Source: a virus
IMG/VR virus record: IMGVR_UViG_3300035156_000138
Span: 1 to 64,000 of that record
Length of the DNA: 64,000 bases
Strand: one strand, 5' to 3'
Within the stretch, counting starts at the first letter, position 1. Each line of letters starts with the position of its first letter. Under the pieces are notes generated by a model. That model was not told the DNA's origin. It saw nothing but the letters and a program-made list of their open reading frames with translations, and did no database searches. A program made the translations under genes and the position numbers. Of the stretch, positions 10,428 through 53,200 are shown in pieces.

Positions 10428-10692
10428 AATCGTCAGCTCCGTAAAAGTGCTTCTGTTCCAGCACCGTGGTTAAGTATTCTTCAAGCATTCGGACATACCC
10501 TCCTGTATCAAGCTGACGCTCAAGCCAAGGAGCAATAATGTAGCGGTGATCAAGAATGGTGTAATCGAACTCTTCGTCGTAGCCTTCTTCGGCATCTTCA
10601 AAGGCACCTCCGATTTTGTCTGGCTGGCCAGGCGAATAACGGTCAACCCTGCAGTAGCAGGGTATCCCGTTGATGGTGGTGGCAAATATCAT
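10417..10692 (-). CDS. Hypothetical acidic protein
   Basis: 91 aa. Start overlaps the upstream stop. Confidence 0.55.
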   Translation of the reverse strand: MIFATTINGIPCYCRVDRYSPGQPDKIGGAFEDAEEGYDEEFDYTILDHRYIIAPWLERQLDTGGYVRMLEEYLTTVLEQKHFYGADDYDR

Positions 10693-11753
10693 GGTAACAA
10701 TCCAGCTTTTTTCAGATCAAGTGTTACTTGGACTCGGATGTTATTTGGATGCGTGCCAGGATTGTTATAAATCCAAAGCATTGTCTGTTTCCATGATTCC
10801 AGTGTTGCGCTCGCATCGGGCTGGGGCTGGGGCTGGGGCTGGGGCTGGGGCTGGGGCGCTGCTGCAACTGGCGGGGTGCGAGCAGCATTGATGACGCGCG
10901 TGAGCCAAGGCAAGTCGGCATCTATCGAATCACCATTGATCAGCGCTCGATGGCCGTTGTACGTCAAGAGTTCCGGGGCGCATAGGAAGTCTGCAACCTC
11001 CTGCTCGGTCAGCGGCGGCAGCGCGCTCGCATCCTGTTTGACCTCGGGCGCGGCTGGCTTAGGCTGCGCATCCCGGCGCTCTATCGCAGCCAATGCGTTC
11101 TCTGCCTTGCGGTAATACGCATCGCCATTTGTGGTGGCATCGAAGCGCGCGACATCCCGAATGCTTTTCAGGGCCGCATGCGCATCGTTCACCACTGGCG
11201 CAGCTTGCACAGCCGGGGCGCGGCCCGGAATCTCTACACATTCGGATTCAATCGGTAGCTTGTTATCGGTGATGTACTTCTTGGCCGCTTCGTATGCCGG
11301 GAAAACGCGCCGAGGGTCTTGCATGACAAACATTGGCGCACCATCAATCACTGAGCGGCGCGCAACGATCCAGCGCTGGTCGGGCGCAGCTTGCACAGGT
11401 GCGCAGACTGGCGCGGCGGCAACGATATCAAATCCTTTGGAGCGGATCGAATCGACAAACGCTTTTACCGATATTGAAAATCCAGCGCCTGCAATTTTCA
11501 CTGTGCTGTCGAGCGAATCCCCGATGGCCTGAAACAGTGCATCGTAAGGATAGCCGCCAGTTTCGCCAGCAGGTTGAATAGCTGCAAAGGCTTGTTTTGT
11601 GCTTGAAGTAAGTACCAGCATGAGTTGTTCTAAAACAGCCATCTTTACTTTGGCTTTGTTTTCTGAAAATGGGACAGCCAGTGGCTTGTTAATAATCTCC
11701 ATGATGATTTCAGCAGTCTTCATGGCTACTTCTTTATAGTCTTTATTGTTCAT
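10689..11753 (-). CDS. Hypothetical protein, compositionally mosaic, with (PQ)6 linker
   Basis: 354 aa. The C-terminal two thirds are encoded by visibly GC-rich DNA and contain AAPQPQPQPQPQPQPD. Confidence 0.65.
   Translation of the reverse strand: MNNKDYKEVAMKTAEIIMEIINKPLAVPFSENKAKVKMAVLEQLMLVLTSSTKQAFAAIQPAGETGGYPYDALFQAIGDSLDSTVKIAGAGFSISVKAFVDSIRSKGFDIVAAAPVCAPVQAAPDQRWIVARRSVIDGAPMFVMQDPRRVFPAYEAAKKYITDNKLPIESECVEIPGRAPAVQAAPVVNDAHAALKSIRDVARFDATTNGDAYYRKAENALAAIERRDAQPKPAAPEVKQDASALPPLTEQEVADFLCAPELLTYNGHRALINGDSIDADLPWLTRVINAARTPPVAAAPQPQPQPQPQPQPDASATLESWKQTMLWIYNNPGTHPNNIRVQVTLDLKKAGLLP
10817..10858. repeat. Hexanucleotide microsatellite (GGGGCT)n, about 6-7 units, in-frame (PQ repeat on - strand)
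   Basis: cgggct ggggct ggggct ggggct ggggct ggggct ggggcg, read directly at 10817-10858. Confidence 0.95.
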
Positions 11754-39779: not shown

Positions 39780-42089
39780 ATGATGGGCTTGTTCAGTAGC
39801 AAATACCAAACTAATGTAGCCACATCTACGGCTAGGGTCATTGAAGACTCGACCCTACCTAATGCAGTTAAGCATGGTGCTGTACGCGGATTGTTCCAGG
39901 ATGATGGTGATCAGTTTACAGAGAACATTTTAGAAGCCCTCGTGGACTCGATCGGTGTAAAAGCTGATCGACTATTCCGATACGGTAAGAATAATTACAT
40001 CTACGGATTACCATCCTCTACTACCCTTGTTGCAAACATGGGTAAGGACCAAGTTCAAGCAAAGATAGTATCCCTGCTTGGCCAGAACATTACACTTGAT
40101 TATTACCACTACGGTGCGTTCAACAATCTCCATATCGGTTGGATGAAGCTGATTGAGAATCATGGATACAACGCCAAGACGAATGTACTGGGTGTACTTA
40201 CGGCAGCCAAAGGCAAGCCAGTAACCTTAACTAACATTGTTGTGTGTGTGATCGAAGCCTCGCTACAAGAGATGAGCAATGGTTCACTGGATATCTGGGG
40301 ACCATCGCCTAATGCAGGTGGCCACACTACGACTGACAATGCTATCTCTATGGCTTTGCTTCGCAAGCTCAACGGGGAGGTCAAACCAAAAACATTCGAG
40401 CTCGATCCTTCAGCACCGAATGACTACCTGCGTGTGGAGTACACCTGGAGTGAGGACTACACTGTAGTGACCGAGGGTGTTAGTGTCACCCGTCAACGAA
40501 TGGCCACAGGATCCTTTCAGATTCAAATCCTTGGCTTCGATCCGAAGGCTGAGTTTCATCACACGAAATACACCCGTGCTGATGGTGAGATTGGTTATTG
40601 GATGTACCAGGCCGGCACCGGTGTCTACCCTGAAATTGACAACCTACATGATACATTGCACCTGTCTACGGGAAGTTTTTTCCCTTGGACATACTTCCGT
40701 GTTGATGGAGTTAAAGGTACCGCTGATACTACTTCACAGTGGTATAAGCAGAGTCGTCGCATGACGAAGTATCTGAATATCGATTACGAGCAAGTATGTG
40801 ACGCTATTCATGAAAACCCAGACATTGACAAAGTTGAACAAGCTATGTTGATGATGTCGGTACCTGCAGTCACGACCAACCAAGTTGAGATGAGGTACCT
40901 ATTCGATTTCTTTGGTGATCTGATTGTAGCCACCAATGGTGGTGATCTGAAGGACGCAGAGCCGTTTAAACCAAAAGGATTTCTTTCGGCTGTGCTCGGT
41001 AAAGCTTTGGGTTCCAGCATCAATGATGCTGCCTTGGTCATCCAAGATTCCAAGTTCAAACTGAGTTTGGGCTTTCGTCACATCAACAAAAACATCATCC
41101 AGGGTGTGATTGGTAAAGTTGGCCACTACACCTCTGGTTGGGAAACGGAAACTATTGTTGAACATGGGACGTCTACACCGGCACCGGGTACAGGTTTAAC
41201 GACACCGACAACGTGGAGCACTGAAGTCAAGAGTCATTGGTATAGGAAGCAAACAACCGAAACCCAATATGAAGAAATCAGATTACACAATCTGAAAGTA
41301 AAGTACTGGATCTATGGTGAGTACGCGGCCACCGCAGATGAGAATGATGACATTCTCTTGATCCCTATCGATCGTTCAGTAACACAGAACTACTCAATTC
41401 CAGTTAAAGAAGAGCTATACGCTAGGTCATTGCATTACATATTCAACTCAAAGGTGGTGACCGAGATTAAATGGTACCAACAGGATTTTTTCCGATATCT
41501 GCTGATTGTTGCTGCCATCATTATTACCATCTGGAGTTGGGGGCAAACCTGGCAAACAATCGGTGCTGCATTGGCATTAGGTACAGTAACGATTGAAGGT
41601 GTGATCTACATGCTTGCGATCAAGCTGATTGAACAAATCCTTATTGCGGCAGCTATAAAACTCTTTGTACGTGTTGTTGGTGTTAAGTTTGCCTTACTTG
41701 TAGCTATCATTGCAGCCATTGCTGGGGTATATCAGGCCATTGATGCAGGTGGATTGGCTGGTGCACCATGGGCCACTGAACTTCTACAGCTGTCGACTGG
41801 GCTAACAAAAGGTATTAGTACTGAACTCCAACGAGACTTCGGCAAACTACAAGCTGAAGCAGATGCTTTTGGAGTTTTCGCTAAACAGGAACAAACAAAG
41901 CTTGATGAAGCAAATAAACTACTGGAGAACAGTAATTGGATGACTCCTTTGGTGATTTTCGGTGAATCACCGCATGATTTCTATCATCGAACAGTGCATT
42001 CCGGTAACATTGGGGTATTGAGCCTAGATGCAATTTCGGAATTCGTAAATGTGTCACTCACGCTCCCTAAATTGAACGATACCTTGTAA
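39780..42089 (+). CDS. Large virion protein with C-terminal transmembrane cluster (candidate ejection/internal protein)
   Basis: 769 aa. Hydrophobic block FFRYLLIVAAIIITIWSW...VIYMLAIKLIEQILIAAAIKLFVRVVGVKFALLVAIIAAIAGV. Confidence 0.6.
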   Translation: MMGLFSSKYQTNVATSTARVIEDSTLPNAVKHGAVRGLFQDDGDQFTENILEALVDSIGVKADRLFRYGKNNYIYGLPSSTTLVANMGKDQVQAKIVSLLGQNITLDYYHYGAFNNLHIGWMKLIENHGYNAKTNVLGVLTAAKGKPVTLTNIVVCVIEASLQEMSNGSLDIWGPSPNAGGHTTTDNAISMALLRKLNGEVKPKTFELDPSAPNDYLRVEYTWSEDYTVVTEGVSVTRQRMATGSFQIQILGFDPKAEFHHTKYTRADGEIGYWMYQAGTGVYPEIDNLHDTLHLSTGSFFPWTYFRVDGVKGTADTTSQWYKQSRRMTKYLNIDYEQVCDAIHENPDIDKVEQAMLMMSVPAVTTNQVEMRYLFDFFGDLIVATNGGDLKDAEPFKPKGFLSAVLGKALGSSINDAALVIQDSKFKLSLGFRHINKNIIQGVIGKVGHYTSGWETETIVEHGTSTPAPGTGLTTPTTWSTEVKSHWYRKQTTETQYEEIRLHNLKVKYWIYGEYAATADENDDILLIPIDRSVTQNYSIPVKEELYARSLHYIFNSKVVTEIKWYQQDFFRYLLIVAAIIITIWSWGQTWQTIGAALALGTVTIEGVIYMLAIKLIEQILIAAAIKLFVRVVGVKFALLVAIIAAIAGVYQAIDAGGLAGAPWATELLQLSTGLTKGISTELQRDFGKLQAEADAFGVFAKQEQTKLDEANKLLENSNWMTPLVIFGESPHDFYHRTVHSGNIGVLSLDAISEFVNVSLTLPKLNDTL

Positions 42090-42100
42090 GGAAATACACT

Positions 42101-42634
42101 ATGGCAGATTATTTGAGCAGCATGAACTGGGGACCACAACCCAATCCTCTCGTGGCTTCCGCACCTACAATCAACCAGATTACACCTTGGTCCAGTAACA
42201 TTCAATCGAGCCCATTCGGTGGTACGGACTATATGAAAAGTCTTGAATCCCCTGGTTTGGGTGGGGTGGATTTTGCATCTTCCGGTAATGGAATGATTGG
42301 GGGTGGTGATAGTGGTGGATGGTTGTCCAGTCTTAAAGGCTGGGGTAAGGATTCTGGCTTCCTTGGTTCCACTGAAAATGGTGTCACTACTCAAGGTTGG
42401 GGTGGTGCAGCACTTGGCTTAGCACAGGGTCTGGGCAACGCCTGGATGGGTATGAAGCAATATGGTCTGGCTAAAGACCAGCTGGCTCAAAGCAAGAAGC
42501 AGTTTGAGCTCAACTACGGTGCCCAGCAGAAGACTACTAATGCAGCACTTGAAGATCGCCAAAAAGCTCGGGTGGCCAGCAATCCAGGTGCCTATCAATC
42601 GGTAGGTGATTACATGAAGAAGAACGGGATCTAA
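42101..42634 (+). CDS. Small Gly-rich virion protein
   Basis: 177 aa with AAGGAAA SD. Confidence 0.6.
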   Translation: MADYLSSMNWGPQPNPLVASAPTINQITPWSSNIQSSPFGGTDYMKSLESPGLGGVDFASSGNGMIGGGDSGGWLSSLKGWGKDSGFLGSTENGVTTQGWGGAALGLAQGLGNAWMGMKQYGLAKDQLAQSKKQFELNYGAQQKTTNAALEDRQKARVASNPGAYQSVGDYMKKNGI

Positions 42635-42635
42635 T

Positions 42636-44162
42636 ATGGGCCAACCAATTACGTGGCAGAACGTAACCCAAGGTGATGCCAGCACTGCATGGCGTGCCAT
42701 GGACTCTGCTCAGAAGAGTATCAACGGTGCGTTTGATGGTGTACAAAGTGTCATCAAGGGCTCGGAAGATATTCAAGCAAAGAACGATGTCGCTATCAAG
42801 ACCAACAACACTCAGGATTTCCTGAACAAGTTAGGTCAGCTGGGTAAGACACCTGAAGCATTGCAAGCAGCTATTGCCAGTGGTGCTGTAGACCAACTCA
42901 AGGCTGGCTATGGTAATGCCATCAACCATGACCAGGTTCGTGGTGCTGCAGAGGGACTACTCGACCAGCGTTACAAGCAGGTCAAGATGGGTGTCGACTT
43001 CAACAATGCCATGTTGGATGAGAAGACTGCACCAATCATGGACCGGTTCAAGTCAGCTGTACAAGCCAAGAATCCTGCATTGATCGAGCAGTATCGGAAG
43101 GAATACACCGATGCTGGTGGTAAGCACTCATCTGATCTTGAAGGCTTCCTGCGCTCCAGTACCCATGAAGATCAAGTATGGGACGAGCAGAAGAAAGGCT
43201 GGGTCCGTGATCAGGGTATGCACGAAGCCAACCTGAAACATATGGTCAATCAAGATCGTGTAGCTCAAGGTCAGCTTGGTGTAGCCCAGGGTCAATTGGG
43301 TGTTGCTCAAGGTAATCTAGCTTTGAATCAGCGTGCACAAAAACTTGACCAGCAGAACAAGTTGGAGCAACTGTATGCTGCCAACATTCAAAGCATGGGT
43401 GAAGTGTCGAAGATGTCAGCATCGTCGGCTGAAGGTACCAAAATGATTGTCGATGAAATCGGCAAGATGACGGACCCAGCCGCTAAACGTCAAGCATTCC
43501 AGGCGTTTAATGAGATGAAGCTGAAAAACCCTAACATGTTGTCGGCCGATGCAATGACGTCATTGATGGGCATCTACCAGCGTTGGTGGCGTGGTGACGG
43601 TACGATTCGTGATGAAGTCACGGATACGGCTGGTTCACTAGCCGGCTCTCCTGGTTCGGCATTGCAATCGAGGACTATCGAAGGCAAGGCCATGGCATTG
43701 CAAAACCAAGGTGACCGTCTACGCTCGCAGATGAAGGTAAATGAATCCGAGCTTTACGGTAATTTACGTGGTGAAAAGTCTGCGACTAAGCCAGCAGCAG
43801 AAACACAAACTACCCCTGTTGCAGCTCCGGCCCAGCCTGTAGTCGACAATGTTTCGCGTCTTCGTGCTGAAGCAGTAGCTGAACAACGTCGTAAAGATTC
43901 CGTCATCAATGAATACAAGTTGAAAGCAGACGCAGCTGCTAGTGGTGGTGCTCCTGGTAATCGTTGGGAACTGGCTCAAACGGCTCGTGTGAAGGATGTT
44001 GCCGATAACTTCGATAGCACTCTGAACATGCTTCGTCCAGGGGCGAGCCGGGCTGATATCCAGAAAGCTCTTGACTGGATCGACAACAAAGAAGAAGCAG
44101 GGGTTCTTACCCGTGCTCAACAAAAGCAAGTGCGAGAAGCTCGCCGCGAAGCGGGTCTGTAA
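42636..44162 (+). CDS. Virion protein (hypothetical) with tandem AQGQLGV heptads
   Basis: 508 aa. VAQGQLGVAQGQLGVAQGNLA is encoded by 21-bp repeats at 43260-43322. Confidence 0.6.
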   Translation: MGQPITWQNVTQGDASTAWRAMDSAQKSINGAFDGVQSVIKGSEDIQAKNDVAIKTNNTQDFLNKLGQLGKTPEALQAAIASGAVDQLKAGYGNAINHDQVRGAAEGLLDQRYKQVKMGVDFNNAMLDEKTAPIMDRFKSAVQAKNPALIEQYRKEYTDAGGKHSSDLEGFLRSSTHEDQVWDEQKKGWVRDQGMHEANLKHMVNQDRVAQGQLGVAQGQLGVAQGNLALNQRAQKLDQQNKLEQLYAANIQSMGEVSKMSASSAEGTKMIVDEIGKMTDPAAKRQAFQAFNEMKLKNPNMLSADAMTSLMGIYQRWWRGDGTIRDEVTDTAGSLAGSPGSALQSRTIEGKAMALQNQGDRLRSQMKVNESELYGNLRGEKSATKPAAETQTTPVAAPAQPVVDNVSRLRAEAVAEQRRKDSVINEYKLKADAAASGGAPGNRWELAQTARVKDVADNFDSTLNMLRPGASRADIQKALDWIDNKEEAGVLTRAQQKQVREARREAGL

Positions 44163-44241: not shown

Positions 44242-47200
44242 ATGACCGATTCAGTCTATACCAGCCTTTCGACGCCTAAAGTGAGCGATGAGATCCTTGA
44301 CCGTAAAATGGCAGAGATCTCGGCAGCCCGTCAGACTAAGATGGCCCAGCTGGATTCGGAGTATCAGACTGCGCTGAAAACACAGGCATTAAGGGATGCT
44401 AACCCTACAGTTAATCAAACTGACGTTCTTGGTACGGTCAGTGATATCGGTGTCAAGCTGGGACAAGGTGCAGTCAACCTGGGTGCTTCAGTGGTCGGCT
44501 TGGGTTCGTTGGCTTCTGGTGGGGCCGTCGGTAATGCTATGCGGGAAATTGGTTATGACCCAGCAGCCACTAATGAAGTACTGGGAGAATACCTGAGCAA
44601 AGCACAGAAGGCAGCTGATGCCAAAGTGCGTGATGCCGAAGGCTTCAGTGATACGGTAATCACCTCACTGGCAAACCCTCGTTCGATTTTGGGTAGTGTG
44701 ACTGAATCCCTTCCTGCCATGTTGGCAGGTATGGGTGTAGCTGGTGCAGCTGCACGGGGCATCGCCGTAAAAGCAGCCATGTCAACTATCGAAGGACGTC
44801 TGGCAGCCGAAGCAGCAACCGCCGCTGGCAAAGTTGGTATGGCTGAGACTGCTGCACTAGGTACAGAAGCAGGATCCACCGCGGCCAAGGCAGCTATTGA
44901 GGCTGCCGGTTTCCGCTTGTCGGCTATTGGTGCCGGTGTCGAGGGTGCTCAAACAGCTGGTACTGTAGCTGATCAAGCTCAGGCCGCTGGTCGTGAGTAC
45001 TCCGACTATGCTTTACCTGCTCTGGCTGCTGGTGCTGTCACAGCGGGCATCGGTGTAGTGTCGAACAAAGTATTTGGTGACGCAGCAACCGATCTGGCCA
45101 CTGGTGCACGCACGTTGACCGGATCAAAGCTGGCTAAGATCGGTAAGGAAGCGTTCTCCGAAGGTGTTACTGAAGAGCTTCCACAATCAGCACAGGAACA
45201 ATACTTCACGAACATCGCCATGGGCGAAGAAGATCACATGAAGGGCGTGGCTAACGCTGCAGGTGCCGGCCTGGTGGCTGGTGCTGCAATGGGTGTAGGT
45301 ATGGCTGGCTTGCACAAGAGTCCTAATGCTGAAACCAAGCAAACTCAAGAACGTGTCACTACTGCTGAGACAAAGCAGAAGGTTGCTGATGCCGTGGCCA
45401 ACAATGACATCACAGCATTCACCAACCCAAAGAGCCCAGATTACGATCTGTCTCGTGGGATGGGTGTGCTTGTGGCTCATGCCATGAAGCCGGATACCGC
45501 TCCTGAAGTCAAAGCAGAGAACCTGAAAAAAGCAGGTGAGCTGTTATCCCAGCTGGAAGAGCAGCATGCCAAGGCAACAGAAGATGCTGATACCTTCTCG
45601 CCAGCCAGTATCGCTGAAGCCAAAACCAAGATTGCTCACTACGAAGCTGAGATTGCTAAGTACCCTACGGATGCAGCTAAAGTTGCCGAGCTGAAGGATT
45701 TCCGTGATGGTTGGAAAGACGTATTGGCTGATGCCACCGATACCCAGGCAGCAGGAAAGTCCCGTGCTACCTTGGCTTCCCTGGATCGCCAGCTCTCTAC
45801 CGGTCGTAACTTTATGGGTGGATTGGTCAATGCTAATGAGGCTGCTGCCACTCCAGATGAAGTAAGTACCCTGGTTACCGCGGCAGCAGCTGACAACACA
45901 GCAGCTACTCGGCTGATCAACCTGTCGATGACTCAACCTGATGCTCTGTCACATACAGAAGCATTGAAGCTGGCTGATGACACCACCAACTCACTTACTG
46001 ATGAACAGCGTGCTCATCTACGTGTGTTCAGTGATGCTCGACAGGCTGAGAATGCTCTGTCTACTCAATCGAAGGTATCTCAAGAGGTACTGTACGGTTC
46101 AAACAAGAACGTGGGTATTGCTCAGTATCGTTCACGTATTGCCGCGGCAATCGCTTCTGACAATGAACCAACTGCCAAGCGCAACCTTGGTATGTTGGGT
46201 AATTTCGCCACTGACCATGAAGACAAAGCAACCGCAGCACGTCAAGCAATCAGGGATTTTGGCCTGGGTAGTCAGATCATTAAAACAAACAGTGGATGGA
46301 AAGCATATCCATCTGATACGTATTCGGAGAAGATATTGCGTTCCGGTGGCGGCTTGAGCATGAAATCTGCTCGCCTGGTCAATGAGATCGCCAATGAGGC
46401 AAAAGCGTTGCGTGCCACCCATACCGAAATGAATTCCGCCACTACCTTAAAATTTGGCGTACAATCCAAATCCTCCAAGCAAGACAGTGTACCTTCCGGA
46501 AATATCGATACCCCAACAAATGAGGAGGACACCGCACGTCCAGCTGTACCAGCTGAACCCCCCACCGCTAGCACTCCACCTAAGCCTAAATCTAAACTTG
46601 AAGCTGGTCGTGAACGCAATGCAAAACAAGAAGCTGCGGTCGCGGAAGCAGCAGCGGCTACCGCCGCCAGAAAAGAAGCTGATACCAAAGCAGCTGAAAA
46701 TCCAGCTGAAAAAGACACCCTCTATGACGCAGCAGTTGAGCATGTCATTGGCTCTAAAAATGCCAGTATCACCAATGTGCAGAAGCACCTCAAGGTAGGT
46801 TACAACCGGGCTGCCCGTATCTTAGAAGAGATGGAGCAGGAAGGAATTGTGTCTAGTTCAGACACAAAAGGTAACCGCACCATCAATGATCAGCCAGCGA
46901 AGACGGCAGTGGCCGAGCAACCAGCAGCGGTGAGCGAAGCGAACCCTGCGCCCGTTGCAGAGGCTACGCCGGCTGAAGCGGTGGCAGAAGTAAAAGAGAA
47001 AACTACCACTCTCACTGTGTTCGATACCGAACATGATTCGTCGGTACCGTACCAGGAACAGAACCTGGTCGGGACTCACTTTGCCCAGACAGCAGGTAAT
47101 GAAGACACTGGTACCCAGCGCCCACTTGCCAAGATGGTCAACTTTCTCTCAGCATGGAAGAACAAGGCTGAAGGATTCAAGCTATCAGATTTCTTGGCTT

Positions 47201-50200
47201 CAAAAGAAGCACCAACTGATGAGCAAAAACTGGTACTGAAAACCTTCCTTGCTACAGCTACGGCATGGGCAGGTAACATCACGGCCAACCTCAAGAAAGG
47301 TAACCCAGGTTATGGCTATGAGGATCTGATCCAGTTCCTGATGAATGAACAGGGCCAGCTCGACGAGAATACGATAACGGCTATCGCCTATGCTGCATTC
47401 AGCTGGACCGCTGAAGCAGCTACACGTCCTGAGCTCAACACCAAAGAAGATATCAATGCAATCCTTGGTCGGGATGAAACCGCCCCAGTATCGACAATCG
47501 AATACAACAAGCTAGAGCACATCGGTACTCGCCAGAACATCGTGGCCAATGCTTTGGGCCAACGCATCGTCGCAAGCTTGGGTCTTAAATCCTTGGCTTC
47601 CGCACCGCGGGATTTACAATCCAAACTGGAATCGTCAGTTGGTGCACATGCCATGAAACTGTTGCTTGATCAGGGGATCCTGGTCCGCAATACGGTGACC
47701 GGTACTGAGATGGCTGAACTCACGAAGAGCAAAGCAACCGACACCAATGCTAAGTTCTACTTCCTTAAATTGGCTCGCACCGATGGTAATCTCAACGAAA
47801 AGGCTGAGGCGATCTTCCAGGCTAATAAAGGATCCCAAGGGATCCTCGACAAGCTGTTTGGTGTGGAACCTTCCCTGAAGGCTCCTGGCACACAGCCTAT
47901 TACTGCTACGCAGAAAACGACACGCAATACCAACATGGCCATTCCATCGGAACTGGCCGAGCAGGTAAAGCATGATGATGCTGAAGCGAGCTATGTACGC
48001 TCTGACATGTTCAATCTGGCTGGCCAGGTGTCCCCTGACACAATGCTACAGATCGCAGGTCAGGAAGATCCTTCCAAGATCGTGCACAAGAGTCGTCGTA
48101 AGTCGCTGCAAGCCAAGAATGATGGACTGGCACGCGAGCTCGATCGGTTCATGGGGTACGTTGGCCAGGCTGGTACTGATACGCCTATGTACTTTGAACA
48201 CTCTGTCTGGATGCAGCAGCGTGTCGGTATTGCCACGAACATGATCAATCCACAGACCAGCAAGATTCACCGTCACATGCTGTATCGCTCGGCCTGGGAA
48301 ACAAAAATTGCCTTTGGTGATACCGAAGCCATGACGAATTTCAAGCTGCGCGTAGCAGAGGGATTAGGGGTCAAGACGGATAAGCTGAGCAAAGAAAAAG
48401 CGTTAGCTAAGTTCACTACGACTATCGCTAAGCCAGAAATCAAAGCAGCCGTGGTCGTCCTGGTGAAGTCATTGACCGGTACCGATAGTGGTGTCTTGTC
48501 CGAGAATGATCAGACTGTATTGGTCGCTGGTGTTAAAGCTGGTGGTGAAGACATGCACTCGCTCGACGCACTGATGGCCATGGCCCAGATGGCGTTGGCC
48601 AAGAAGGAAGGCAAGTCAGATTTCACTACTCAAATGATGGCTGAGGTTGACGGTGTAACAAATGGCCCGATGCTGTCGCATCTGTTGCTTGGTGCAGCGA
48701 ACTCGGTCAAGGAAATGTACGCCTTACTGAACCGTGGTGGTTTCTTTCAGCAAGGTAGTGAGCACATCGAATACAACAACTGGCGCGATGCACCAGAGAA
48801 TTTCGACCTGTACGAAAACACTGCTTTGCACATGACGCAAGCGATCAATGCTGCCAATCTGGATCCTGCTCTCATGGCTTCGATCTACGCCTTTACCGGC
48901 GAACTAGCTGATAGCAAAGGCGTTGTGCAGAAGGCAGGCCGGAACATCATCAAGACTCCGTTGACGGCTATGGTATTTGGTTCGTCGGTGAACAATGCAG
49001 TTGATTCGATGGCTGACAACTTCATTGACTCAATCTACTCGGTCATTGAAGAAGGTGAGATGTCGAACAGCGATATCTTGCAGCACCTGGTTGGTCTGGG
49101 TGTTCGTCTGCCTGGTAACGTGGAGCTCATGGAACATGAGTTCACAGCACAGCAAACGCGTCAACTCAAGACAGTGTTCAAGGAATCCTTGGGTAAGGCC
49201 GTTGAAGAAACGATGAAGCAAGACTTTGAAGTGTTCATCGCGCAGCGTACTGAGTTCAACAAAACTGCACAGCTGACGTTTGAAGTGTACAACGCGGTGT
49301 ACCAGGGACTGCGTGAAGAGCTGACGACTCAGCTTATTGCTGACGGTGAGATCGCAGTCAACAAGACTACTGGTGTACCGTTGCATGATCTCACCAATGC
49401 ACAGGAAGCAGACCTACGTAAGCAGACGGCTGCCTTGATGCCGGTAATGAACACGCCTATGTCTCAGGAATCAAACAACCTGAAGGCAGGCATCATGGTG
49501 GCCAAAGCCGAGCGTAAGCTCTCGGACAAAGACACCTATCAGAATGTGGTGAAGTTCGGCCAGCCTTTCGCTGATGGCAGCAAGTCCACCCAGGTTCACG
49601 GCTATGAAGTATCCCCTGCTGGACCAGGTGTGGCTATGGTCCCAGTCAGCATGCACTCGGCCGACTCGGCTATTTCGGTACGAGCAAACAAGGAGGGCAA
49701 AGCCTTGAACATTCACGATGCACAAGGTCATGGCGTGGGTGGCATCATCGAAACTGCACGTAGCATGAACGAAGCGACGTGGGACACGATGCTCAACTAC
49801 TCGCCGGCGTCTGAGGTACGTGATGCATTGCTGCGCACAGTACGTGGACTCAACGCCATGATGGCAGCGGGTAAAGTATCTGATGCAATCCTGACCAAGC
49901 TGGCTGTATCGCTCGTTGACTTCGCTGAGAAACATGAAGCACCAGCTGAAGGAGTTCTGTACCTGCAGGCTGAGTTAGCCCAGTCCCTGGCTTACCGTGC
50001 TGACAGTATGAAGTTGGACACCATGGCAACGATGGTCTCAGTGAATCAATATGCGATGGAAGGTGGTGCCTTCGCTGTCGAGTCTTCTCACCGTTCCTCG
50101 GCGGCCTCGCTGCGCTCGGCGCTTGAGGTCGGTGTTTCAGACGTCGACCGCTTGGCCCTCACCACTGTCAGCGATAAGCTGGAAGCAGCGATCAAAGCAG

Positions 50201-53200
50201 AGTTGGCCAAGCGTGATCCGAAAGCGCCAAAGGTCAAAGCCGATCCGGAAATGGATACGAAAACCAAAGGTTCGCCAGTGGCAGAGCTTGGGAAATCTGC
50301 GATCGCTTCAGACAAAGATTTGGTAGCAGCATTCACGGCTAAACCAGTAATGACACTAACTGAAGTAGCGTCAATGCTGAGTACAAAATTGACTGATCAG
50401 TTCCAGAAGAATCTACTCAATCAGCTGGCCAAGCGTGCTGATGTTGACCTGACAATCCGTTACGTGACCAAGGACACGTTACCAGCTGAGCTGATCAATG
50501 GTGCTGAAGCTAACTCCCGTGGCTGGTATGTCCTGGGTGGTAACGTGATCTACGTCATGGCACCTGAATTCAAGTCTTCTGGCTTGACGACTGAACTGCT
50601 GATGCACGAACTTACCCATGCTGCGCTGGCCCAGATCATTGAGCAATCCCAAGCCGATGGCAAGGGTGCTGCTTACGAAATGGTGCAAGAGCTTGAAGTA
50701 TTGCGTGAGAAAGTAGAAGCCCGTTTGGCTGCCACTGGTGAAACAGGGAAGTTTGGTAACGCCACCAGTAATGTCCATGAACTGGTGAGCTGGGGCATGA
50801 CCAATACCGATTTCCAGGCTGTGCTGGTTGGCATTGAGATGGCACCAAAGAACGCCGGCAGCTACTTGTTGAACGGTATGAAAACCTTCGTGAAGATTCT
50901 TTCCTCACTGGTTTTCGGCCGCCCGAATGATGCGATGGCAACTGGTATGGATGTGCTGATCACCAACGTGGCAGGCTTGCTGAACAAGACAAGCAAAACC
51001 ACTGCAGCACCTACTCAACTTCGGTCGTTAAGCCAGACCCAACCAGTACGTAACCTAAGTACTCAGGACATCTATGCTGCCCTGGCTCAGTCGAACAATG
51101 GTGCACAGATCAGTGCTGAACATGATACTCATTTGCAAGGGTTGCTCTCTACGCTGGTTAAGTCAGTGTATGGTCCTTTCGGTTCCTTCAAAGCTGCATT
51201 GATGGAACAAACAGCACAGGATCCGCTTGATGTTTACGCCCAGGCATTGAGCACCGGTGAGGCTCCATTTGCATCTGAATCTTTGGCTGCTGGTTTTGGT
51301 TTCACCAACCAGGAAGCTTTCGTACTCGAACAAGTTGAAGCCACCATGCGCACTGCACTGTCGAACAATGACGGTGTGATGACGGTAGCTTACAAGGAAA
51401 TGACCCGTCTCTATAACGAGGTCCGTGCCAAGCTAACGGTTGAGTCATTCCATAAAGGCGATTGGGCCACAGCTACTCAGATTGAAAAAGACCAGGCACA
51501 AGCACTGTACGATTTTGTCTTCGCTATCAAACAAGATGCCACGGGCAAGAGCGATTACATGAGCCGCTTCGCTGCCCTGGGATTGGTACATTCTGGCTTC
51601 CGTGAGCTGTTGAATTTCAACACCGCTACCGGTGCTACGAGTAACCCAAGCATGGGTTTCAACGAACGACTGAATAAGATTTTCAATACGGTTATGAGCT
51701 GGGTAGCCGGCCGCCTGACCAATACTTTCCGTGGCCAGCAAGCAGACCAAAAGCTCAATGCTCTGGTCAAGCAGATGGTTGAAATCGAAGCCAAGCGCAA
51801 TGAACGTATGATCTCTCGTGCATCGCAAGCGTTGAACAGCATTGCTGATACCGCCGAGGACATGAGCGACAAGGTACGTGATGCGGTTGAAGCATTTGGT
51901 AAGAAGCCGTTCTTCCAGAACAACGCAAATGCTTTCGTTAAACTGGCAGGTAACACTCTGTCTACCGTAGCAGGCGATCGTGTTGATGGGATCATGGAAG
52001 CCTACCTACGCTTGCGCGATAAGACGATGACTGGGCAACTGGGTGTAGCTGCTTCATTGCTCAATGAAGTACGTGGTGCAACCGACTTGAACAAGGTTTA
52101 CCACTTCCTGTTGCGTAGTACTAAGCACCTGGAAGGTATTCGCAAGGACACTATCAGCAGCATTTCAAAAGCAGTAACAGGATCCTTTGCCAATGATGGT
52201 GAAGACCTGACGGATGAACATAAGAAAGCAATGACCGCGGTGGTATTGCGTGGTGACATGCAGTCTCTGCTGGGTACCTATACGGTGGCCCAACTGCAAA
52301 ACCTGGTCAACAGCTCAACTGATCTGCAGACTGAAATTGATCAGCATGAAGCACAGCTAGTTGCTGGTGGCAAGATGAACAGGTTCTATATCAACTCAGC
52401 TAAAGGGCTGGGTTACTTCATGGCTACTAGTAAGGTCGCCACGGCTCACCAGTTGATGAATGCTGGGAACATCGCACGCTTGTATGGTACGGGTATGGCG
52501 GCCAGTGTTACTACGGCACAGGTTCAGGCAGCCACGCCAATCATTGATCGTCTGGCTTCGTTGTATGCAATGAAGTATGCCAGCCGTGTTGATATGAAAT
52601 TGGTATCTGAAGTCTTTGATGCGGAAGCTGCACGCACCGATGGTGGTCATGGCATTGAAATGATCATGAAGACTCACACGGCATTGCAGGTCGAAAGCAA
52701 AGACAAACTGTTTTCAGACAGCGAAGCTTTGCAGATGAAAGGTTATGTACCTGAAGTCTATGATCCATACATGACGGTGGTGATGGCTACTGATGACGAA
52801 GGTCTGCAGTTGATCAAAAAAGGCTATACGGCTATGCCCGGCTATTTGCCACGCGATGCAGCGGATCCTGTCAGTGAACAAAAGCGGATCTACTCTTTGC
52901 GTGATGGTGGTCTCAAGCAATGGAACTCGGGCATCATCAGCACGACTGATTCTAAAGCCAAGGGCAGCCAGGTAATCAATGGGGCACATCCAGTATCGGT
53001 AGCTGGCCAACAGAACATCGCAAACATGGCTGCTATTCGTGCCGGCAAGCGTGCGGCCATTCAAAGCATGTTCACTGGTACCGGCTTCGATCCAACGGTG
53101 AGCAAAGAAGCCCACATGGCACCAGTGCTTAATCCAAATGGTGATGTAACGAACTACCGCTACATGATGAGCAATGTCGTTAAAGACAAGCTGCTTAACC

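Follow-up and report, generated by a model that had tools for sequence, protein, structure and literature searches.

An FtsK_gamma winged-helix domain inserted into the linker of an N4-type phage virion RNA polymerase

Introduction

Only about four molecules of the virion RNA polymerase (vRNAP, gp50) are packaged in each virion of bacteriophage N4, and early transcription by N4 needs gyrase: the 500 bp of DNA that enter first need gyrase supercoiling though the genome is linear, and this genome must be “topologically constrained during injection” because gyrase has to supercoil it (PMC4496689). The N-terminal domain (NTD) of gp50 is described as membrane-binding, with predicted membrane-spanning helices at residues 224-278, and is joined to the polymerase by a 100-residue low-complexity sequence (residues 907-1006), via which the refolded enzyme “stays anchored to the bacterial membrane” through the membrane-bound NTD (Bellis et al. 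2026, PMC13434306). In a second structural study the NTD is unresolved and is proposed to tether the enzyme to the membrane beneath the injection channel (Narwal et al. 2026, PMC13492108). Here we describe an N4-type vRNAP, encoded in a 64,000-nucleotide stretch of phage DNA (positions 1 to 64,000 of IMG/VR record IMGVR_UViG_3300035156_000138, hereafter the window), in which this linker holds a winged-helix domain of the FtsK_gamma family. Coordinates are those of the window, and features lie on its plus (+) strand unless marked (-).

N4-like vRNAPs are counted among the polyvalent proteins that are delivered with DNA by virions or by conjugation, a class in which the FtsK winged helix-turn-helix (wHTH) is a rare module that binds double-stranded DNA (PMC5512222). 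The NTD and linker are unresolved in both of the 2026 cryo-electron microscopy studies, and the natural variant described here puts a well-understood duplex-DNA-binding module exactly there. It offers a handle on how a polymerase of about 3,500 residues meets its template and on how a linear genome becomes supercoilable.

The FtsK_gamma domain and its fold

An earlier note on this DNA, made from the letters alone, had described an FtsK-gamma-like winged-helix module at 46714-46887 (+) and quoted 58 residues for it. These residues are the exact translation of that interval and correspond to residues 825-882 of a 3430-amino-acid (aa) open reading frame (ORF); the opposite strand of the interval holds stop codons. 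The domain itself spans aa 823-881 (46708..46884), as placed by Pfam PF09397, an AlphaFold2 (AF2) model and Foldseek. PF09397 scores 73.1 bits on these residues, where its curated cut-off is 30.6 (E 1.5e-20), with positions 2-60 of the 63 in the profile covered. A phmmer search of PDB sequences with aa 805-902 returned FtsK gamma chains only (E ~2e-14), namely 2j5o, 2ve8 and 2ve9 of Pseudomonas aeruginosa, 2j5p of Escherichia coli and the XerD-gamma fusion 5dcf. The E. coli gamma sequence that the note had given agrees with the PDB sequence, and the Pfam score and the PDB search bear out its judgement that the resemblance is too long to be chance.

The predicted structure leads to the same family. 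AF2, given aa 805-900 and an alignment of 26 cellular FtsK sequences, models three helices (aa 821-838, 843-850 and 854-867) followed by a beta wing, i.e., the winged helix that the note had expected. The predicted local distance difference test (pLDDT) scores, averaged over ten-residue blocks, are 86-93 in the core and below 50 in the flanks. In a Foldseek search of the PDB with this model, ranks 1-13 are all FtsK gamma, with target-normalised template modelling (TM) scores of 0.70-0.90, and the model superposes on the KOPS-bound structure 2ve9_A (KOPS, FtsK orienting polar sequences) with a root-mean-square deviation of 0.5 Å over 55 columns. Generic winged-helix proteins come after these and only at E > 0.01.

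The FtsK_SpoIIIE motor domain (PF01580) has no match anywhere in the 3430-aa ORF in the Pfam scan. The protein is a member of the FtsK_gamma family within a member of the N4 vRNAP family, and it is not an FtsK. We regard the identity of the domain, together with its insertion in the polymerase, as practically certain.

The polymerase that carries the domain

The host ORF (44242..54534, single and uninterrupted) is, on the evidence of its sequence, a true N4-type virion RNA polymerase, the homologue of N4 gp50. Residues 1001-3430 align with the annotated vRNAPs of LUZ7/LIT1-like Pseudomonas phages at about 36% identity over 97% coverage (tblastn, 465 phage records matched), and phmmer matches the protein to the full-length N4 gp50 chains 9pnr and 11gp in the PDB at E ~1e-61. 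The catalytic residues line up, D1470 in motif A (AEVDGVTNG) with N4 D559 and K1571 in motif B with N4 K670; motif C falls in a gap of the N4 alignment, and its candidate here, LNIHDA, was picked out by eye without a formal alignment. After the RNA polymerase (RNAP) domain comes a metallopeptidase-like module whose zincin motif, HELTH (aa 2122-2126, 50605..50619), is the sole HExxH in the protein and matches the HELVH at residue 2228 of N4; the region with HExxH in N4-type vRNAPs has been assigned to a zincin-like peptidase (Iyer et al. 2017, PMC5512222). The gene neighbourhood agrees with this assignment. The upstream order is portal, capsid, genes of 769, 177 and 508 aa, and vRNAP, which parallels N4 gp59...gp53-gp52-gp51-gp50; the three genes (39780..44162) are placed like the plug and ejection proteins of N4, gp53, gp52 and gp51, an equivalence of position and size only.

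The NTD, taken to end at the onset of low-complexity composition, comprises aa 1-745 (44242..46476) and is rich in Ala and Gly. A hydropathy scan picks out two moderately hydrophobic segments in it, at aa 256-274 and 339-357. As a separate observation, aa 1-360 (44242-45320) are very rich in Ala, Gly and Val, with repeated GxxxG/A-like stretches; in N4 gp50 it is this same region that holds the predicted membrane-spanning helices (residues 224-278).

The phage lineage is uncultured and known from metagenomic sequence alone, so that packaging of its vRNAP in the virion and its ejection are putative; none of 50,697 phage records is related to it at the nucleotide level. Within metagenomes, the identical 3430-aa protein occurs on four contigs; those listed, which represent two or more independent assemblies, are in Logan SRR10954965 (77 kb), ENA ERZ27253080 (45 kb) and ENA ERZ27253086 (77.7 kb). 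We considered an assembly chimera and rejected it: independent assemblies share the identical protein, and the fusion is thus real and not an artefact. The precomputed Pfam list of the identical protein on record already names FtsK_gamma.

One residue of the catalytic domain deserves separate mention. Within motif B (KTPLTAMVFGS, aa 1571-1581), F1579 (48976-48978) aligns with N4 Y678. We take N4 Y678 to correspond to Y639 of T7 RNAP, the tyrosine that discriminates ribonucleotides from deoxyribonucleotides, and a Tyr-to-Phe change there makes both T7 RNAP and the N4 mini-vRNAP less discriminating towards the sugar. Phe occupies the position in 79 of the 84 vRNAPs in which the motif was located (representatives plus N4), and Tyr occupies it in N4 and four representatives. 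The natural Phe in most of the vRNAP clade may merit attention.

Linker, insertion boundaries and origin

The earlier note had placed the module in the N-terminal part of the polymerase between low-complexity arms. The arms are as described; the placement can be refined to the tether between NTD and RNAP, equivalent to N4 residues 907-1006, since aa 978 of the window protein aligns with N4 residue 1093 and puts the tract at the N4 NTD-RNAP linker. A composition scan in 40-aa windows delimits a low-complexity tract at aa 746-925, inside which the FtsK_gamma domain is the sole island of ordinary composition: the combined fraction of A, P, E, K, T, S and Q is 0.7-0.8 at aa 741-822 and 861-925 vs. 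0.42-0.50 inside the domain. The left arm of the linker, defined by composition, runs from aa 746 to 822 (46477..46707), and the right arm, likewise defined, from aa 882 to 925 (46885..47016), with conserved vRNAP sequence resuming at about aa 926.

Comparison with five IMG/VR relatives, L002 to L006, whose vRNAPs are 79% (L002), 56% (L003) and about 40% (L004-L006) identical to that of the window, sets the boundaries of the insertion. In a global alignment with L003, with whose linker the distal part of the left arm aligns, the insertion proper appears as a single clean gap of 70 residues (aa 816-885, 46687..46896) between two shared linker stretches, its flanks being ...RKEADT and AKTAVAEQPAAVSEANPAPVAEA; this is the inserted domain that the note had proposed. 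Besides the domain, the insert comprises 7 residues on one side and 4 on the other, and it contains no other part of FtsK. Against L002 (IMGVR_UViG_3300034175_000063), a DNA homology of about 80% (blastn) ends at 46587 and restarts at 46895 (L002 9700 and 9981), leaving 46588..46894 without homology. At the same linker position L002 has a different block of 280 nucleotides or about 94 aa (L002 9701-9980, ...VVHVGKEFATSLEAEKYLYDNFLGESLKATRKADKSGYVIESRKK...), for which Pfam gives no match. With L003 as outgroup, the simplest history suggested by these alignments would be a gain in the present lineage and a separate replacement in the lineage of L002. A further relative, P0001, is truncated and begins within the linker, and so is uninformative on the insert.

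The guanine-plus-cytosine (GC) content of the cassette is 48.5%, vs. 51.2% for the gene, and GC at third codon positions is 52.5% in the domain vs. 53.5% in the gene. The closest cellular gamma domains are 54-60% identical and come mainly from Burkholderiales, with other beta- and gammaproteobacteria. From this identity and the phage-like GC it follows that the capture was not recent or that the donor is unsampled. A recent capture from a high-GC betaproteobacterial host was considered and rejected: the best Burkholderiales FtsK proteins are 54-60% identical and the GC of the cassette is that of the phage. A genome scan for a donor found identities of at most 58% in beta- and gammaproteobacteria, from which no donor or host can be named.

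DNA-reading and XerD-contact residues

Simultaneous mutation of R1300, E1303 and E1306 makes E. coli FtsK blind to KOPS (PMC2680272). The equivalent residues in the vRNAP, R859, E862 and E865, are all kept: they lie in the recognition helix (aa 853-865, 46798..46836, from the alignment to E. coli gamma), where E. coli RIIEQME reads RILEEME. The wing motif G-N-R (aa 877-879, 46870..46878), 97-100% conserved in cellular hits, is also kept, with the wing arginine R879. More broadly, the G-Y-N-R-A-A-R, E and M-E columns that are invariant in 119 cellular FtsK hits are kept, and none of the 23 columns that 26 cellular FtsK gammas share without exception has changed, including those of GYNRAAR and the wing arginine.

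The surface that meets the recombinase XerD has fared differently. For the activation of XerD no FtsK residue matters more than R1289, which forms a salt bridge with XerD E184 (PMC5052618); all of the 119 cellular hits have Arg at this position, and the vRNAP has Lys (K848, 46783..46785, from the alignment to cellular hits). The position of R1292 is likewise Lys (K851). The stretch TEKRKA, implicated in contact with XerD (PMC2965235), is represented by IGSKNA, in which K and N stand in place of two arginines that vary little or not at all among the 119 cellular hits. Since the charge at position 1289 is kept, a loss of XerD binding is not proven. The pattern seems to favour retained DNA binding over retained XerD activation, and it is suggestive only because the XerD and DNA surfaces of gamma overlap (PMC5052618).

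The canonical KOPS motif, GGGNAGGG, is not in excess in the phage DNA. The earlier note had suggested motifs of the GGGNAGGG type as possible binding sites, a suggestion that the counts do not bear out: there are 2 copies of GGGNAGGG in the 64-kb window where 4.6 are expected, two or more occur in 91 of 100 shuffles, and one more copy in the adjoining 9.5 kb brings the total to 3 in 73.5 kb. Nor does an unbiased 8-mer scan of the DNA contain any real G-rich skewed octamer. The 8:0 strand skew of GGGCTGGG that it turned up is spurious and derives from a tandem repeat in coding sequence, (GGGCTG)n, at 10818-10855. This repeat, the hexamer GGGCTG about seven times over, lies inside ORF 10689..11753 (-) and presumably encodes a dipeptide repeat. 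KOPS as the phage target was rejected on the count of GGGNAGGG, which lies below expectation, and because the motif is not enriched a specific KOPS tether to phage DNA is without support. A general tether to duplex DNA is plausible.

The combination of conserved KOPS-recognition residues with a phage genome in which KOPS is not enriched places specific sites mainly on the host, and it lends something to the view that the domain is an effector directed at the host, which would bind chromosomal KOPS or XerD and disturb dimer resolution or segregation, or would dock the polymerase on the nucleoid. An isolated gamma domain can activate XerD, as PMC5052618 and PMC3130261 report, and polyvalent virion proteins often carry host-modifying modules (PMC5512222). 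The replacements just described count against it, however, with Lys at both R1289 and R1292 and both invariant arginines lost in the change from TEKRKA to IGSKNA. So do the numbers, as about four polymerases per N4 virion are too few to titrate KOPS or XerD, and the N4 literature sees an advantage in a polymerase kept off host DNA (PMC4496689). We consider a host-directed role decidedly improbable.

Distribution of the fusion and variability of the linker

None of the five IMG/VR relatives (40-79% identical in vRNAP) has a gamma domain. With aa 800-1999 as query, an exhaustive HMMER search matched 581 proteins at E <= 1e-30 among 1.84 billion cluster representatives, and a gamma-domain hidden Markov model run against the best 150 of these vRNAP representatives found only the window's own protein, the other 149 being without the domain. 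The comparison across vRNAPs that the earlier note had called for thus leaves this lineage as the sole carrier among the best 150 of the 581 representatives and the five relatives. The note had also known of no such module in the N4 layout, rightly: hmmsearch --max finds nothing in N4 gp50 at E <= 10, and the structural papers of 2026 describe no FtsK_gamma module in it (PMC13434306, PMC13492108). Scans of IMG/VR and JGI metagenomes gave no further carriers of the cassette, the metagenome scan returning only a bacterial ftsK (L010).

Viewed from the side of the domain the result is the same. FtsK_gamma matches 277 records of the phage database, and none of the 120 matches listed (the best and a spread of the rest) is in a vRNAP gene. 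The listed matches sit in FtsK-like translocases, RdgC-gamma fusions, small stand-alone proteins and unannotated or hypothetical genes, the last on records far shorter than an N4-like genome. Phages of Escherichia, Klebsiella, Erwinia and Achromobacter are prominent among the vRNAP hits and are not among the ten commonest organism names of the gamma hits. One candidate for a gamma domain elsewhere in a schitovirus genome, Vibrio phage vB_VpaP_1601, was set aside, as it has no vRNAP-size gene in the 37 kb examined and no family assignment. Full-text searches of the literature turned up no description of a vRNAP or a member of the Schitoviridae with an FtsK or gamma domain, the supplementary tables of Iyer et al. 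lying outside the scope of this search. Among the sampled vRNAPs, the sequences point to a gain in this phage lineage alone.

The site of the insertion is far from unusual. Measured between conserved anchors on either side in 132 vRNAP representatives, the linker has a median length of 139 aa, the shortest being 28 and the longest 1233. Islands of ordinary composition at least 40 aa long occur in 50 of the 132 and form 21 or more similarity groups; the majority are without a Pfam match. One is a superfamily 1 (SF1) RecD-like helicase (AAA_30, E 3e-22, plus UvrD_C_2), Walker A motifs are common to several, and an additional HExxH module is visible in many. Examples among representatives P0122-P0270 are the linkers of P0198 (aa 893-1687), P0246 (aa 893-1672) and P0227 (aa 394-1571). 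To judge from these sequences, the vRNAP family in general has a hot spot for insertions in the NTD-RNAP linker, and because the modules of this linker vary so, it fits the polyvalent-protein picture (PMC5512222). A hot spot that takes up helicases, extra zincins and many modules without a family matters for the annotation and the engineering of vRNAPs.

Such a site raises the question of whether the gamma domain is a neutral passenger, i.e., the 3' end of an ftsK-like gene brought by illegitimate recombination into a permissive, disordered linker, where it folds and contributes nothing. That a single lineage carries it, that linkers of such variable length hold unrelated islands in so many representatives, and that L002 has swapped in a different block without a recognisable family are all as this explanation would have it. 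Against it, the domain is complete and precisely bounded and keeps every family-invariant residue, and the lineage has been sampled repeatedly. Its phage-like composition, with donor-like sequences at most 60% identical, speaks against an arrival so recent that there was no time to decay, an argument that an unsampled and nearly identical donor would void. On balance we think a neutral passenger unlikely, though if the domain were dispensable it would be one more case of domain shuffling in polyvalent phage proteins.

A possible role during genome entry

The reading that we prefer, tentatively and with an even chance at best of its being right, draws on the analogy with N4 and with FtsK: a captured duplex-DNA-binding module would hold DNA beside a membrane-tethered polymerase. 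A complete gamma winged helix without the FtsK motor sits in frame in a disordered tether between a membrane-anchoring NTD and the catalytic domain. After ejection, the NTD of the polymerase would stay at the inner membrane under the ejection channel, and the winged helix would hang in the cytoplasm about 77 residues of linker past the NTD and about 44 residues before the polymerase. There it would bind duplex DNA, most likely that of the entering phage genome, with little or no sequence specificity. Such binding would keep the template beside the few injected polymerase molecules, and it may help to fix the linear DNA so that gyrase supercoils it and hairpin promoters extrude. A supporting theme is that other vRNAPs hold DNA-handling modules at the same site, the SF1 helicase being an example.

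Several points weigh against this proposal. The domain is present in one lineage only and the linker tolerates many insertions, for which reasons it may be dispensable, and N4 and the other sampled schitoviruses manage without it. The IMG/VR and metagenome scans gave no sequence variants of the cassette, so selection after the insertion is not measurable. The low count of GGGNAGGG in the phage DNA belongs here too, and if KOPS specificity were retained, the best sites would be on the host chromosome and would draw the polymerase off its template.

The earlier note had allowed for tethering during packaging as well as ejection, and a role within the capsid can be envisaged, in which the winged helix would bind the genome once packaged and link the polymerase to the end of the DNA that exits first, or would assist in retaining or ordering the polymerase during assembly. 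Inside the N4 capsid the vRNAP forms a “beads-on-a-string” chain amid the DNA (PMC13434306), and a DNA-binding bead could touch DNA there as readily as in the cell. Yet it is the C-terminal domain, rather than the N-terminal part, that N4 encapsidation requires (unpublished data cited in PMC4496689), and no sequence feature separates the capsid reading from a cytoplasmic tether. We find this role hardly probable at all.

A stronger form of the cytoplasmic tether would make the winged helix the missing DNA clamp of the ejectosome, which would grip the first duplex to emerge and fix it to the membrane-anchored NTD; this we regard as quite improbable. Equally improbable, by our estimate, is the consequence that would go with it, namely that the topological domain so closed would let host gyrase supercoil the linear genome and fire the hairpin promoters. 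If this form were true, a portable and recognisable domain would make explicit a function that is also performed in N4 and its relatives.

Other features of the window

Three features outside the vRNAP gene may be recorded. A single tRNA-Tyr (anticodon GTA) lies just downstream of the vRNAP gene at 55382-55471 (-), and a 184-aa gene at 57125-57679 (-) has a precomputed match to Sequestin (PF21825). A 179-aa homing-endonuclease-like gene (NUMOD4/HNH_3) extends from about 63629 to beyond 64000 (-) and adjoins a ribonucleotide reductase gene just past the window.

Comparison with known systems

The gamma domains of FtsK and SpoIIIE (PF09397; 2j5p, 2j5o, 2ve8, 2ve9) have the same fold as the domain in the vRNAP, at about 50% identity, and share with it the GYNRAAR helix, the KOPS-reading triple and the G-N-R wing. 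The settings of the two differ. FtsK gamma is the C-terminus of a membrane-anchored hexameric motor, whereas the vRNAP gamma is internal, between disordered linkers, and has no ATPase domain. FtsK reads KOPS with three gammas of one hexamer (PMC5052618), whereas the vRNAP has one copy per polypeptide. The arginines with which FtsK gamma contacts XerD are replaced in the vRNAP.

With N4 gp50 and the other vRNAPs of the Schitoviridae the protein shares the layout of an NTD, a low-complexity linker, a T7-like RNAP and, at the C-terminus, a large domain with HExxH, as well as the gene neighbourhood and the residues of motifs A and B. The linker is where they part: that of N4 (907-1006) is purely low complexity (PMC13434306), whereas the one here holds FtsK_gamma. 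Other phage gamma domains, in FtsK-like translocases, RdgC-gamma fusions and small stand-alone proteins, belong to the same Pfam family at 34-56% identity, but the genes in question serve replication or recombination, or encode translocases in siphoviruses and temperate phages, and among the matches listed none is a virion-packaged ejection protein.

The closest conceptual precedent is that of the polyvalent proteins (Iyer, Burroughs, Anand, de Souza and Aravind 2017, PMC5512222), which are giant, are delivered with DNA and combine variable modules with a zincin peptidase, as is likewise the case here: by the definition given there, the vRNAP of the window is a giant multidomain protein with an HExxH module and, in FtsK_gamma, an accessory domain. 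The partners that Iyer et al. list for the N4-type RNAP module are a metallopeptidase, an ADP-ribosyltransferase, a lysozyme and a PBECR RNase, and their example of the FtsK wHTH is a Cupriavidus protein and not a vRNAP (PMC5512222); here the RNAP module is partnered with FtsK_gamma. As a domain architecture the fusion is new, and its theme is a known one: virion-delivered polyvalent proteins carry accessory modules that vary.

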